The notes under the pieces: model-generated
The model's input: the letters and a program-made list of their open reading frames with translations, nothing else
The model's database searches: none
Told to the model about the DNA's origin: nothing
NCBI GenBank assembly: GCA_002099625.1
Contig: GCA_002099625.1_4857.1
Source of the DNA: Escherichia coli
Lineage (GTDB): Bacteria; Pseudomonadota; Gammaproteobacteria; Enterobacterales; Enterobacteriaceae
Length of the DNA: 64,000 bases
Direction: 5' to 3' (one strand)
Program-made: the position numbers and the translations under genes
In this document: positions 42,426-48,990 of the stretch, piece by piece
Layout of the letters: every line of letters starts with the position of its first letter
Numbering within the stretch: position 1 is the stretch's first letter

Positions 42426-42977
42426 ATGAGTTTATTTGGAAAGACCGCAAAAGAGTTGGTTTACGATCTTATCGTGTCCCAGAATCCCGGACTGACTGGC
42501 AAGGGCGTGACCATCGATAAATTGTCGTTCGGTAACCCGTCGCACATCACCGCATCCGATCCTGACCCAGAACAGTACACCAGACTGAACACCAGTCTCG
42601 ATGTTTCTGGTATCGTTGAGAAAGGTACGTTTGGTAAGATGGGTCTTACTTACCGTCGACTGGACGTAGCTCACCTGTTTGAAAACGTGGTGCTGTCTGT
42701 GGACGGTAGTAGCGCCAATACAGCCGCCGACCTCGTTCCGTTGTTACAGGCCAAGTACAATTGGTTGATTGATGCGAGCGAGATTTATGCGACGGAGTCA
42801 ATGACGTCTTCCACGAAACACAATTTGCGTTTCAATGGAAAGTCACTGGCGTGGACGGGTACGGTTGAAGTTTATTTGACCGAAGTTCCGAGCGATGGTG
42901 TCGATATCAGTAAACTGATCACCGTTACCGAGTTGAACGGTCTGGTTTATGACATCTCTGACATGACTCAAGCGTAA
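42426..42977 (+). CDS. Hypothetical protein (183 aa)
   Basis: GAGGTAG ribosome-binding site; last gene of the plus-strand block before a terminator. Confidence 0.6.
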   Translation: MSLFGKTAKELVYDLIVSQNPGLTGKGVTIDKLSFGNPSHITASDPDPEQYTRLNTSLDVSGIVEKGTFGKMGLTYRRLDVAHLFENVVLSVDGSSANTAADLVPLLQAKYNWLIDASEIYATESMTSSTKHNLRFNGKSLAWTGTVEVYLTEVPSDGVDISKLITVTELNGLVYDISDMTQA

Positions 42978-43032: not shown

Positions 43033-43454
43033 TAGCGTTCAATAATCACTTTTACGATATCTTCTACCGGAGGGTAATACCACAGAACCACGCTGTTTCG
43101 TCCCAAGTCTTTTGGAAACGTTTGACAGTACGCAATGTCGGTGCCGAAGCGTTCAGAGAGCTTTAAAACGTTCTCTGGGAATTGACAGCCTCCTCGCCAA
43201 TCATGCGTATAGAGTACCTGCTGTAGTAACTTCACATTAGCATCGAAGAAGTACAGATTTTCTACCGGTGCAATGTGAGGTACCGGAATCGGTGTGTCGG
43301 TAAGTACGAACTCCAAACCACCGCATTGTTCTGAACGCTCCGCTAGGAATTTCAGATGCCATGGCATTAGACCGTGGTCTTCCCAGACGATGTTGTTGAC
43401 CAGTAAACGATCAACGTATTCATCGTAATCAACCGTGAACAGTTTCTTCGCCAT
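43032..43454 (-). CDS. Hypothetical protein (140 aa)
   Basis: GAAGGTGA ribosome-binding site before ATG at 43454; overlaps the 3' end of the upstream gene by 26 nt. Confidence 0.55.
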   Translation of the reverse strand: MAKKLFTVDYDEYVDRLLVNNIVWEDHGLMPWHLKFLAERSEQCGGLEFVLTDTPIPVPHIAPVENLYFFDANVKLLQQVLYTHDWRGGCQFPENVLKLSERFGTDIAYCQTFPKDLGRNSVVLWYYPPVEDIVKVIIER

Positions 43455-44343
43455 CTTTCACCTTCTGCTCAAGTTCAGCGGCAGTCATGTCTGCTTCTTT
43501 AACGAAGATACCGTCCGCGTTCAGGAAACCCTTACGGTCTTTGATTTCGTCCCACGCCAGAGAGAAGCACTGTTCCAGAGTCATATCGTACGCATTAGCC
43601 AGCGCATTGGCGTATTCGACCATCTGAGCGAAGTGACATTCGATCATTACCGCGTCGCTGTTCTCGAAGTGTTTATATTCGAGTTGCTTAGCTGAGTCGA
43701 TGCCGGCTTGATCCCAGATGTAATCAACAGCTGCTGTGAGATGGAAACGCATTTTGTGGAACAGGTAATGACTGTTCCCGGCAAGTGGGTTCTTTGAACG
43801 CGCTTCGTTGACATATGTGCTGATATCGGTCGAGTCAAACTTAATGAGTTCCATCAAGTTAACCAACACGACCAGAGCATCACCGATACCGTCCATGATG
43901 TAACGGCGTTTGTTTTTACTGATACCGGTTGCCGCTTCACCGTCTTCTTCGTAGAGTTTGGTGGCTTGGCTATACCAGACGCCGTTATCCAGAATACCAC
44001 GCGCTTTAGACCAACCCATAACGTTAGTAATACATTGTGGGATGGTGTACAAAGGTACGTAACGCGGACGATCAACCGTACCACGATACTCGACACCTTC
44101 CAACGTCCACGGCATTTCGAAATCATTTATTTCCAAACTCTGGTCGCCTGTGAATACTTTACCTTCGACGTAAGTGTGACCGGTTTCACTGTTCACGCAC
44201 AGGGTGTACAGTTTCTCAAAGGACCACGGTTCAACAAACTGACGTTGGCAGAATCCAGCCAGAAGCTCATTAATCTGTGCCAGGTACTGGTTAGGTTCAA
44301 CAATAACGTTATACGGAATCTGGATAATGAAACGGTCGCCCAT
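43429..44343 (-). CDS. Hypothetical protein (304 aa)
   Basis: Long ORF in minus-strand block. Confidence 0.6.
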   Translation of the reverse strand: MGDRFIIQIPYNVIVEPNQYLAQINELLAGFCQRQFVEPWSFEKLYTLCVNSETGHTYVEGKVFTGDQSLEINDFEMPWTLEGVEYRGTVDRPRYVPLYTIPQCITNVMGWSKARGILDNGVWYSQATKLYEEDGEAATGISKNKRRYIMDGIGDALVVLVNLMELIKFDSTDISTYVNEARSKNPLAGNSHYLFHKMRFHLTAAVDYIWDQAGIDSAKQLEYKHFENSDAVMIECHFAQMVEYANALANAYDMTLEQCFSLAWDEIKDRKGFLNADGIFVKEADMTAAELEQKVKDGEETVHG

Positions 44344-46665: not shown

Positions 46666-47703
46666 TTAGATAGCGACAGGTGCTTTAATTGGGTCGTGTG
46701 ATACGTAATCCTGGATCTCAAAATCATCGAACTTATAATCGAAGATAGATTCCGGTTTACGTTTGATGACCAGTTTCGCCAAAGGTAAAGGTTCGCGCGT
46801 CAGCTGCAGCTTGGCCTGCTCCAGATGGTTGGAGTACAGATGCACGTCACCGCCGCTCCAAACGAAATCGCCTGGCACCATGTTAACTTGCTGAGCTACC
46901 ATGTGTACGAGTAATGCGTAAGACGCGATATTGAACGGTACGCCAAGGAAAAAATCTGCACTACGTTGATAGAGCTGGCATGAAAGAATGCGGCGAGGTA
47001 TTTCAAGTGCGTCCATCTCAACGTGGAACACTGCGTCATCTGCTACAGCTTCATTACTAAAGCGGGAATCGTTAAATTGATCTGGAAGGTTCTTTTCAAA
47101 CCAATCAAGGCGCTCGTCGATAGACAGCTCACGAGTGTAGAACTGAAAGAACGCATGACACGGAGCTAACGCCATTTGATCCAACTCGCCCACGTTCCAT
47201 GCGCTGACAATAATACGACGACTGTCCGGGTCGTTACGCAGCTGGCCCATAACCGTCTGGATTTGGTCGTGCTCTTTCAGAAGTACACGCGCATCGAACA
47301 TTTGTGAACCATCGTCCGCGTCGCCATAATCTGCGTATCCAGCATCCTGCAGTTTCTCGAGTAAAGCTGCATTTTTCTTAGGCACCAGTTTCACATCTTT
47401 CCAACGTCTCCATTGTGCACCATAGATTTCACCTAGGTCACCGTTCTCATCTTGCCACTCACGCCAGATTGTGACCCCGTTGTCTTCCAGATATTTGGTG
47501 TTGGTGTCACCGTTAAGGAACCAGAGAAGTTCGTGAATAATAGAACGCAGGTGGAGTTTTTTAGTCGTGACTAACGGGAAGCCTTTGCGCAAATCAAAAC
47601 GCATTTGGCGACCAAAGACGGAGAGCGTCCCTGTCCCAGTACGATCGCCCTTAACATGCCCTTCATCCAGAATATTCTGCATCATTTCAAGATACTGTTT
47701 CAC
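46666..47703 (-). CDS. thyA: Thymidylate synthase (ThyA-type) with two insertions
   Basis: GTG start with AAGGAAA ribosome-binding site gives [15 protein letters not shown]...; near-identical blocks to E. coli ThyA ([50 protein letters not shown] with catalytic Cys, [19 protein letters not shown]); two extra segments of about 36 and 45 aa. Confidence 0.85.
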
Positions 47704-47705
47704 AA

Positions 47706-48575
47706 TTATTTTCCTTTCAATAAATTCAAAATGTCTCTTAAATCGTCGTTCGCACAAATGTTTACGGCGTTACCGTCGAACTTAACATCAACGCGAGGGT
47801 TACGATTGAACAACATTTGTTTTCTTACTATCCACGGTTCAAAGTGCGCCTTGAGAAGCTCTTGCAGCTTTTCGTTCATAATGTCCTCCATCCGCAGCAA
47901 TAGCTGCGGCATGGCGACTTCACCGTTATGTTCGGTTTGTAAATCATTCGATGTGGCCAAAAGGCAATTTACAATAATGTCGTGAACTGACTCGTTGGTT
48001 TTGTACACCGTCTGATAGGTTTGTTTCGCCAAATCGTCGTCGGATAACGGCAACGATGCTTTGAGCAGTTCGCCGAGCGTGCTTGTCGTTTCAGGCGTCT
48101 TAACGAGCTTACGATGGCCATTAAAAACAACACGGTCAAACTCCAGCCCGCAACGACACGCCAACAATTGATACTGTCTCATCAACTTACGAAGCAGCGC
48201 GCTATAACTCTTAGCGTCAGGTTCTGGTTCACGCAAAACAACACTAACGGTCTCGACTGCAATTAACATGAGCTGCTGCAGTTGTCCTTCTTTCGTGCCA
48301 GTTGTAGTACGAACAGACACCGCATCACTCAACGGAACGACAATATCACCGAGGTTAGAATGTGGACCGAGGTGTAGCAGCGCGGCAAATGTCCAAATCG
48401 ATTCACCGATACCGGCAGCCACCTTTAAGTTATCCAGTTCATCGACACCTGCTGAGATCCTGCCGAGTGTGACGTAATACTTCACCAACTGACGTTCAGT
48501 CGCTTTCTGTTGGTAAATATCTGTCTTGCGAAACCACTCTTCGACTGCCTGAACTTGCTGAATGATGCTAGGCAC
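47706..48575 (-). CDS. Hypothetical protein (about 289 aa)
   Basis: ORF 47706..48668; GGGAGGAAG ribosome-binding site precedes GTG at 48575, overlapping the upstream stop (GTGccTAG), suggesting translational coupling. Confidence 0.5.
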
Positions 48576-48990
48576 AGACTTCTTCCTCCCGATACGCGTA
48601 GCAGATTGCAAAGTTAAGCTGGCCGGTTGCGCGAGAAACGACAACGGCGATAGTCTGGTCTTCCACACCCGACATCGGTGTGCCCTGGTTAACCATTTGA
48701 CCTGCGGCCTTGCTTACCGGACCCAGCAAACGCCAGCTGTACAGACGGCTACGTAACGCTGCGTTTTGTAAGAAAGCGGAGCCGCAATCATAGTCGACAT
48801 TAAACGCTGCAAACATTGGACCACAGTCTGCCATCGTGCCGTTTAACGGCAGCTCGCTCGTTACCACAATCTTCACAGGCTTGTCTTTGAGACGCTGTGC
48901 TAACGCTTCCCAGTTAGCGTTATTAGTGCCAGCGATGATGGTGTTGTTCAGAAGTAAGCCAACGCCTTTTTCAAACGCGATATTGTTCAT
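48568..48990 (-). CDS. Hypothetical protein (140 aa)
   Basis: AAGGAGAA ribosome-binding site 5 nt before ATG at 48990. Confidence 0.6.
   Translation of the reverse strand: MNNIAFEKGVGLLLNNTIIAGTNNANWEALAQRLKDKPVKIVVTSELPLNGTMADCGPMFAAFNVDYDCGSAFLQNAALRSRLYSWRLLGPVSKAAGQMVNQGTPMSGVEDQTIAVVVSRATGQLNFAICYAYREEEVCA

Follow-up and report, generated by a model that had tools for sequence, protein, structure and literature searches.

Thymidylate synthases with two insertions at fixed sites in SPN3US-like jumbo phages and other large phages

The DNA analyzed in this work is a stretch of 64,000 nucleotides (hereafter, the window) from contig GCA_002099625.1_4857.1 of the assembly GCA_002099625.1, deposited as Escherichia coli. 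On the minus strand, at positions 46666 to 47703, it carries a gene for a thymidylate synthase (TS) that closely resembles E. coli ThyA, except that the protein is expanded at two sites. The locus raises the question of what these two insertions are for, and with it two further questions: whether they change the reaction catalyzed by the enzyme, and whether the gene was recently acquired from a bacterial host, as an earlier note on this DNA had proposed. The answer that we hold with moderate confidence is that the gene encodes a canonical TS of a nucleus-forming jumbo phage, and that the inserts are two old, non-catalytic surface modules that serve quaternary structure or docking and are exchanged as cassettes. 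The window is 92-95% identical at the nucleotide level to Salmonella phages of the Seoulvirus group (SPN3US, the SPFM series, and SEGD1), which bears out the enterobacterial host suggested in the earlier note; judged by its sequence, it is a Seoulvirus, that is, an SPN3US-like chimallivirus of the giant Salmonella phage type. Seoulviruses are nucleus-forming jumbo phages related to phiKZ.

Catalytic core and the two insertions

The gene comprises three blocks that are collinear with E. coli ThyA and two inserts between them.

46666..47703, minus strand: thyA-type thymidylate synthase gene, 345 aa plus the TAA stop codon, GTG start (open reading frame and translation, PF00303, PDB match)
47398..47703, minus strand: core block N, residues 1-102 matching E. 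coli 1-102, with the R21 phosphate loop, E58, W80, W83, and Y94 (phmmer block 1)
47272..47397, minus strand: insert 1, residues 103-144, net +36, a predicted beta-alpha-beta-beta mini-domain and hypervariable cassette with the GY anchor G122, Y123
47131..47271, minus strand: core block M, residues 145-191 matching E. coli 109-155, with R162/R163 (E. coli R126/R127) and the catalytic Cys182-His183 (phmmer block 2)
46987..47130, minus strand: insert 2, residues 192-239, net +45, a predicted acidic helical bundle in place of the E. coli hairpin 156-158, with the anchors E197, P236, and R238
46669..46986, minus strand: core block C, residues 240-345 matching E. coli 159-264, with R247, S248, D250, N258, H288, Y290, and the C-terminal KAPVAI closure tail (phmmer block 3)

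The protein matches the Pfam thymidylate synthase family PF00303 with 374 bits (E 3.7e-112; cut-off 24.3) and the thymidylate synthase group phrog_160 at 1e-116. The top PDB match found by phmmer is E. coli ThyA (E 5e-124), which is covered from residue 1 to 264 except for the loops 103-108 and 156-158. The core is 74% identical to this enzyme, so that the likeness to enterobacterial ThyA noticed earlier is confirmed. Pairwise alignment gives the collinear blocks q1-102 = Ec1-102, q145-191 = Ec109-155, and q240-345 = Ec159-264 (Ec, E. coli numbering), and it recovers both insertions exactly where the earlier note had put them: insert 1 follows QWRRW and has 42 residues in place of 6 (net +36), and insert 2 follows FFQFY and has 48 residues in place of 3 (net +45). 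ThyA of E. coli and other enterobacteria (EC 2.1.1.45; PDB 2TSC, 1TJS) lacks both expansions.

The inserts, 126 and 144 nt long, are in frame and free of stop codons, and they resemble the core in GC content (0.48, 0.47, and 0.48 across the inserts and the core). Both are conserved as coding sequence in 117 close homologs, the exceptions being P0045 and P0041. In this set, E197, P236, and R238 never vary, and variation at G122, Y123, and R198 is close to nil. Introns and inteins were considered as the origin of the inserts and rejected because the reading frame is continuous and conserved as protein, Rfam (group I introns included) gave no match in the region at E<=1, and no intein or endonuclease domain of Pfam was found in the reading frame. 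The td gene of phage T4, which is ~36% identical, differs in being interrupted by a group I intron; the window gene has none.

Judged by its residues, the protein is a canonical ThyA-class TS that would convert dUMP and 5,10-methylene-tetrahydrofolate to dTMP and dihydrofolate. Of 28 tabulated positions involved in dUMP binding, folate binding, or closure, 27 are identical to E. coli TS, the remaining one being R49K. The nucleophile of the P-C-H motif (Ec C146) is Cys182, with its codon at 47158-47160, and is followed by H183; E58, Y94, D250, H288, and Y290 are also present. All ligands of the dUMP phosphate (R21, R247, R162, R163, and S248, equivalent to Ec R21, R166, R126', R127', and S167) and the folate and closure elements W80, W83, L179, G254, F257, and V343-A344-I345 are found as well, and the C-terminal APVAI is kept. 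Asn258, the equivalent of Ec N177, is retained. This position is occupied by Asp in the dCMP hydroxymethylases, Asn going with uracil and Asp with cytosine. The dCMP and dUMP hydroxymethylases (T4 gp42-like and MilA-like) are 16-19% identical to the window protein, compared with 74% for E. coli TS. Membership in the hydroxymethylases of the TS superfamily was rejected, given the Asn at Ec 177 and the intact closure tail.

A bifunctional dihydrofolate reductase (DHFR)-TS was likewise rejected, as the protein has neither an N-terminal extension nor a Pfam match to DHFR. A tblastn search of the window with E. coli FolA gave nothing credible (E 0.28); DHFR and dTMP kinase are encoded in related genomes (PMC6614189). 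In phage PhiPA3, TS fused to GFP is kept out of the phage nucleus and is cytoplasmic (PMC9067925), and by analogy the window TS most likely acts in the cytoplasm of the infected cell.

The earlier note placed the inserts near the region that forms the small domain in other TSs. This does not hold for either of them, and applies only to a third insert that some relatives carry. Insert 1 lies in the loop before helix H, a known variable loop distinct from the small-domain site of L. casei TS. We take its site to be that of the 8-residue insert of eukaryotic TSs, from the offsets between human TS (hTS) and the E. coli enzyme (hTS Y135 = Ec Y94, hTS C195 = Ec C146). The L. casei enzyme reportedly carries a 50-residue insert in its small domain, and human TS inserts of 12 and 8 residues, with catalysis unchanged. 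In the window TS the L. casei site (Ec ~87-89) is unexpanded, the segment Ec 83-91 having 7 residues as in E. coli; a TS of the L. casei type, defined by an insertion of ~50 residues at this site, was rejected.

Insert 2 replaces the beta-hairpin that joins two central interface strands, outside the small domain; the PF00303 model breaks at this hairpin and continues through insert 1. The hairpin is ~8 residues along the strand from the catalytic Cys182, and both insertion points are at strand or helix ends distal to this residue. To our knowledge, no characterized TS has an insertion in the strand iii-iv hairpin, and PDB searches found no solved TS structure with inserts like these. In human TS, Y202 is at the perimeter of the dimer interface, where it stacks on F59' and is close to P172-R175 of its own chain and to K47', T55', and D254' of the partner (PMC9831607). 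Its equivalent is Ec Y153 and, in the window protein, Y189, which adjoins insert 2; the equivalents of all listed neighbors are conserved, the dimer-perimeter residues here being K18, T26, F30, P159-R162, Y189, and D286. Since Y189 matches hTS Y202 and the neighboring residues are conserved, insert 2 should, by analogy with the human enzyme, emerge where the dimer interface has its rim, close to the phosphate loop of the partner and to Arg162/Arg163 of its own chain, the arginines that this chain contributes to the active site of the partner.

An AlphaFold2 monomer model, made with the 117 homologs in the alignment, predicts that the inserts are confidently folded modules. Insert 1 is modeled with strands at 100-108, 124-130, and 137-146 and a helix at 112-120 (predicted local distance difference test score, pLDDT, 76-91), and insert 2 with helices at 195-205, 207-212, 217-221, and 223-232 (pLDDT 85-94). 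The model of P0029, a homolog of the MET_P1 type whose inserts are 23% and 39% identical to those of the window protein, again has a beta-alpha-beta-beta insert 1 and three helices in insert 2. In a library of viral protein models, TS of phage 201phi2-1 aligns through the inserts with TMq 0.79, compared with 0.63 for TS without inserts. Each of the 17 allele types of insert 2 found among the homologs is acidic, with a net charge of -2 to -9; insert 1 differs in charge from type to type.

Distribution and origin of TSs with insertions

The two-insert TS is present in all Seoulviruses, in Erwinia jumbo phages (Asesino, Machina, Caitlin, Wellington, phiEaH2, and others), in Cronobacter phage CR5, and in E. 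coli phage Goslar. Comparison of chimallivirus TSs (SPN3US gp229, Goslar gp141, the Erwinia group, CR5, phiKZ-like phages, and B3FJL1 of 201phi2-1) revealed both inserts at the same sites and with the same anchors as in the window TS; the differences are in the insert alleles, which are 20-40% identical. The TSs of phiKZ-like Pseudomonas phages, one of them 488 aa long, are far more diverged in the core (53-57% identical); they have homologous anchors at both sites and differ from the window TS in a third insert of ~105 aa at the L. casei site. A tblastn search with insert 2 returned 81 phage records, named as phages of Salmonella, Erwinia, Pseudomonas, Cronobacter, Escherichia, Proteus, and Enterobacteria; every record listed is from a jumbo phage, either SPN3US-like, of the Erwinia type, or of the phiKZ/201phi2-1 type. 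The protein carries the plain annotation thymidylate synthase in dozens of phage genomes.

The interface strand itself varies in some of these proteins. In the Goslar TS (L003 4001-5017) and the P0046 cluster, which, counted by insert-2 type, takes in 63 of the 117 homologs, LSCQLYQRS is replaced by LSCMLLARS or LSCFYMMRS. Ec Q165 is not conserved in the Goslar-type lineage, and the dimer interface itself is remodeled there.

A HMMER search of 1.84 billion representatives yielded 15,936 TS homologs, and the inserts were counted in the 132 full-length proteins among the best 150 representatives. An insert at site 2 occurs in 93 of the 132 (median +40 aa), at site 1 in 56 (median +29 aa), and at the L. 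casei site in 35, and all eight combinations of the three sites are found; the relatives P0045 and P0117 and the phiKZ-like TS also have an insert at the L. casei site. The 13 scored catalytic residues are intact in 103 of the representatives. Most site-2 inserts begin with the pattern Y-T/S-R/E-x-L/M-S/T-x-x-E-R and end with V/I-P-x-R/K-x-L-S-C. Because these entry and exit patterns are common to most site-2 inserts, the alignment argues for a single old insertion at this site rather than repeated gains. We define here, as an uncurated group, a decorated TS lineage by the entry Y-T/S-R/H-E-L/M-x3-E-R, the exit V/I-P-x-R-x-L-S-C, and a site-1 G-Y/W anchor before D-Q-I; the window protein carries these motifs, and they are common to the phiKZ-like TS and many of the representatives. 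All five genomic contexts sampled were phage-like, on contigs of 41-370 kb with genes for ribonucleotide reductase, SbcCD, clamp loader, primase, and DHFR and with many ORFans.

Several metagenomic TSs are far longer, at 450-590 aa (P0125, P0132, P0152, P0176, P0127, P0171, and P0202), and have an extra 200-300 aa near profile position ~100-105 or N-terminal extensions. No Pfam domain besides PF00303 and no intein signature was detected in them.

The claim of the earlier note that the gene was recently derived from the host is not supported by these data or by the following comparisons. The gene is ~71% identical to E. coli thyA at the nucleotide level, and within the three core blocks only. 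No tract of high identity to host thyA was found in 5,426 E. coli genomes, and gene conversion from the host gene was rejected because every block is just ~71% identical. In a neighbor-joining tree of the core (262 columns, Kimura distances, 500 bootstraps), the TSs of enterobacterial phages are monophyletic with 86% bootstrap support, a clade of Enterobacterales and Aeromonas excludes the phage TSs with 84%, and a phage clade nested within Enterobacterales gets no more than 4%. The metagenome-assembled genome L031, labeled Klebsiella, is not enterobacterial in this tree, and the clade tests were set accordingly. Mean core identity is 74% between the phage proteins and Enterobacterales, 71% between Enterobacterales and other Proteobacteria, and 89% among Enterobacterales. 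The window TS differs from E. coli ThyA in its place outside crown Enterobacterales, in a monophyletic phage lineage of its own. Finally, we scanned the 185,579 bacterial and archaeal species genomes of GTDB and kept the best 80 of at least 600 matches; none of these 80 has the inserts, and all are 261-277 aa long.

Recent host capture is not supported because nucleotide identity to the host gene is only ~71%, the phage TSs form a clade of their own, and the inserts are common to phiKZ-like and other large phages and absent from the best bacterial matches. The TS with inserts appears instead to be an old lineage of large phages, and its striking likeness to host ThyA would mainly reflect the slow evolution of TS.

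Exchange of insert alleles and the genes around thyA

Pairwise comparisons within the Seoulviruses revealed that the inserts and the core have different histories. Between the window and SPN3US, the synonymous divergence (dS) is 0.64 in the core, 0.11 in insert 1, and 0.035 in insert 2, and codons 106-255 have ~100% nucleotide identity compared with 84-91% at the gene ends. Between the window and the Seoulvirus EC001, the core is 94% and insert 1 is 98% identical, whereas insert 2 is only 35% identical, with a nonsynonymous divergence (dN) of 0.73 that exceeds the dS of the core (0.37). Since such an excess is impossible by divergence in place, the sequences indicate that EC001 obtained insert 2 by recombination with a divergent allele. 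The EC001 insert 2 is 89% identical to the allele of a Caitlin-type Erwinia phage whose core is just 77% identical, so that an E. coli Seoulvirus and an Erwinia phage have one insert-2 allele in common. Between the window and MET_P1, the inserts are 23% and 39% identical, and codons 271-345 have 98-100% nucleotide identity.

Among the 117 homologs, we distinguished 18 types of insert 1, 17 types of insert 2, and 16 core clusters, which occur in 30 combinations. With cores at least 90% identical, 20 pairs have an insert 2 and 24 pairs an insert 1 below 50% identity; identical insert types recur across different cores, and allele contents that are 20-40% identical sit on cores that are at least 90% identical. 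The dN/dS ratio (omega) between allele classes is 0.27-0.69 in the inserts and 0.05-0.12 in the core. Within allele classes, the substitutions are few and mostly synonymous (dN 0-0.01 versus dS 0.04-0.11). An omega above 1 was not measured, dS being saturated between alleles. Insert 2 of type 1 is found on contigs labeled E. coli and Salmonella alike, without a clear correlation with the host.

The gene is a local hot spot of divergence within a genome background of 97-99% identity. From these patterns, the exposed parts of the inserts are seen to evolve fast and, on the evidence of the alignments, to be swapped as cassettes via recombination in the conserved core sequence on either side. In a published screen, two TS codons of SPFM, SPN3US, and SEGD1 came out as positively selected (PMC6614189), a signal that this kind of recombination can generate. 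At window positions 42550-42850 and 43450-43600, the nucleotide identity to SPN3US also drops to 77-88% in short patches, against the same background of 97-99%, and mosaicism thus extends beyond thyA.

Three genes at or near the locus in the window or in a related phage are of interest.

47706..48575, minus strand: candidate MazG-like nucleoside triphosphate (NTP) pyrophosphatase gene; longest open reading frame 47706-48668, start likely at 48575; phrog_10269 at 4e-112
43429-44343, minus strand: second MazG-like pyrophosphohydrolase gene; phrog_7855 at 2.6e-144, Pfam MazG at E 0.002
L092 2001-2768 = OR413581.1 208181-208948: free-standing HNH endonuclease of Salmonella phage SPLA3, 255 aa, annotated as restriction endonuclease

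The first of these genes is directly upstream of thyA. Its match to the MazG-like phrog_715 is weak (7e-4), and its homolog SPN3US_0228 is 870 nt long. In pSal-SNUABM-04, the annotation of the ortholog includes an NTP-PPase_SsMazG domain, and on the contig of a distant phage, a TS gene with inserts likewise has a PRA-PH/MazG-like gene in front of it. The pair of genes fits a putative module for conversion of dUTP or dCTP to dUMP and further to dTMP. The upstream gene is a hot spot of allelic variation as well: in EC001, it has an allele with 44% protein identity inside flanks that are 95-100% identical, the sole other divergent patch within 6 kb. Co-variation of the insert alleles with this gene was considered and not seen in the few genomes compared: MET_P1 retains the MazG allele of the window though both inserts differ. 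The gene downstream of thyA is 94-100% identical among Seoulviruses. The gene at 43429-44343 is more clearly a MazG than the one before thyA, to which it shows a weak relationship, and two paralogous MazG-like genes thus flank the block.

In SPLA3, the HNH gene is inserted immediately ahead of thyA, with an overlap at the thyA start; neither the window nor SPN3US has it. The neighboring coding sequence of SPLA3 is 576 nt long versus 870 nt for the MazG-like gene elsewhere in Seoulviruses, a comparison of lengths only. Free-standing elements of this type are known to drive gene conversion of flanking DNA (PMC2790892), and the SPLA3 endonuclease probably does so at this locus. PADLOC matched neither TS nor its neighbors.

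The start of thyA probably needs correction in several deposited genomes. In the window the start codon is the GTG at 47703 and the stop codon is the TAA at 46666-46668; a GGA is found 8 nt upstream of the GTG, and the TAA of the preceding gene ends 2 nt before it, a spacing consistent with translational coupling. In GenBank, SPN3US_0229 (L001 6667-7683) and several relatives start from a downstream ATG and have 339 aa. Across the 117 homologs, M1, Q3, and Y4 are kept family-wide, and the GTG at 47703 gives the conserved N-terminus MKQYLE (M-x-Q-Y). As this start restores the conserved N-terminus and abuts the upstream stop codon, the starts deposited for SPN3US and several relatives probably leave out six codons. 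Within the thyA gene, promoter and terminator signals were not in excess.

Possible roles of the inserts

Under the reading that we favor, of a canonical TS with old surface modules, the chemistry and the choice of substrate would be unchanged by the inserts. Insert 2 would extend or individualize the edge of the homodimer, and other proteins or enzymes could dock on either insert, so that the role in protein-protein interaction proposed in the earlier note is plausible. Surface inserts of T4 Td have reportedly been proposed as docking sites for other enzymes of the T4 dNTP-synthesizing complex, and the idea of docking draws on this analogy; the T4 inserts are elsewhere in the protein, at the small-domain site and in the C-terminal region. 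The modules are exchanged by homologous recombination in the core sequence on both sides, which is highly conserved, and a free-standing HNH endonuclease likewise occurs at this locus.

Several observations weigh against this reading. The alleles of the two inserts reassort freely and do not co-vary with the MazG-like gene, which gives no positive pointer to a specific partner: the reassortment argues against a specific contact between the inserts, and the missing co-variation argues weakly against the MazG-like neighbor as a partner. Neither insert is strictly essential, given that P0045 has no insert 1 and P0041 has a shortened insert 2. The ranking of the representatives in the census favors insert-bearing proteins, the query itself bearing inserts. 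Both AlphaFold2 models are monomeric and of moderate overall pLDDT (78-79; 79 for the window protein), low around the catalytic loop, and insert 2 was placed against the partner subunit by homology with human TS and not from a model of the window protein.

Some of these points would also suit a neutral origin, in which the inserts are tolerated loop expansions under relaxed constraint, shuffled via recombination at the conserved core and by homing-endonuclease activity. The elevated omega between alleles of the inserts relative to the core, the variable insert lengths with one member devoid of insert 1 and one with a short insert 2, the free reassortment without co-variation with the neighbor gene, the mosaic patches elsewhere in the genomes, and the HNH endonuclease adjoining thyA in SPLA3 are all compatible with such decoration. 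We nevertheless regard it as doubtful, since the inserts have persisted across phiKZ-like and SPN3US-like phages and far outside these groups, with invariant or nearly invariant anchor residues. Purifying selection is evident within allele classes, where substitutions are few. The predicted folds are confident and reproducible, and insert 2 stays acidic in every allele type.

Alternatively, the inserts could be diversifying identity surfaces that evade a factor of the host or of a rival phage, or that prevent mixed dimers with the host ThyA, 74-81% identical, or with the TS of a co-infecting phage. Many deeply divergent alleles on near-identical cores, exchanged horizontally, would be expected of such a surface, as would the exposure of the variable parts on conserved anchors with insert 2 at the dimer rim; the TS codons flagged as positively selected (PMC6614189) and the altered interface strand of Goslar-type relatives point the same way. 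However, PADLOC found nothing, no omega above 1 was measured at saturated dS, the published signal could be an artefact of recombination, and the allele type has no clear correlation with the host. We also know of no defense system or inhibitor aimed at TS. We therefore consider a conflict interface unlikely, and its stronger form, in which the surfaces are under diversifying selection against a factor that senses, inhibits, or poisons the phage TS, for example via mixed dimers, marginally more so. The suggestion of the earlier note that the inserts alter specificity, by reshaping the pocket such that a modified pyrimidine is made in the manner of the hydroxymethylases, can draw on the location of insert 2 near the phosphate loop of the partner, but is highly improbable: the pocket and closure residues are those of E. 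coli TS at 27 of 28 positions (the other being R49K), Asn258 (Ec N177), Y94, W80, W83, and the APVAI hydride-transfer tail are kept, the core is far closer to E. coli TS than to any hydroxymethylase, and the insertion points are distal to Cys182.

In the searchable literature, we found neither the two-insert architecture nor its breadth among large phages described, and likewise nothing on insert 2 being at the rim or on the exchange of cassettes. TS is among the most conserved and best-studied enzymes and is a classic drug target, and in a large, mostly uncultured lineage of big phages it carries up to three folded modules at fixed surface sites, one of which, at the dimer rim, has no such module in any solved structure. 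The locus also holds two cautions for genome analysis, namely that high likeness to a host enzyme is not evidence for recent capture and that recombination mosaics can mimic positive selection. If the inserts were surfaces of conflict, thymidylate synthesis would be a previously unrecognized front between phage and host or between phages. In the SPN3US-like phages, the modules act as interchangeable alleles on a host-like core, and since SPN3US, Goslar, and phiKZ have genetics, they offer a tractable system for asking what lineage-specific decorations of an enzyme do, be it complex assembly, dimer insulation, or immune evasion.

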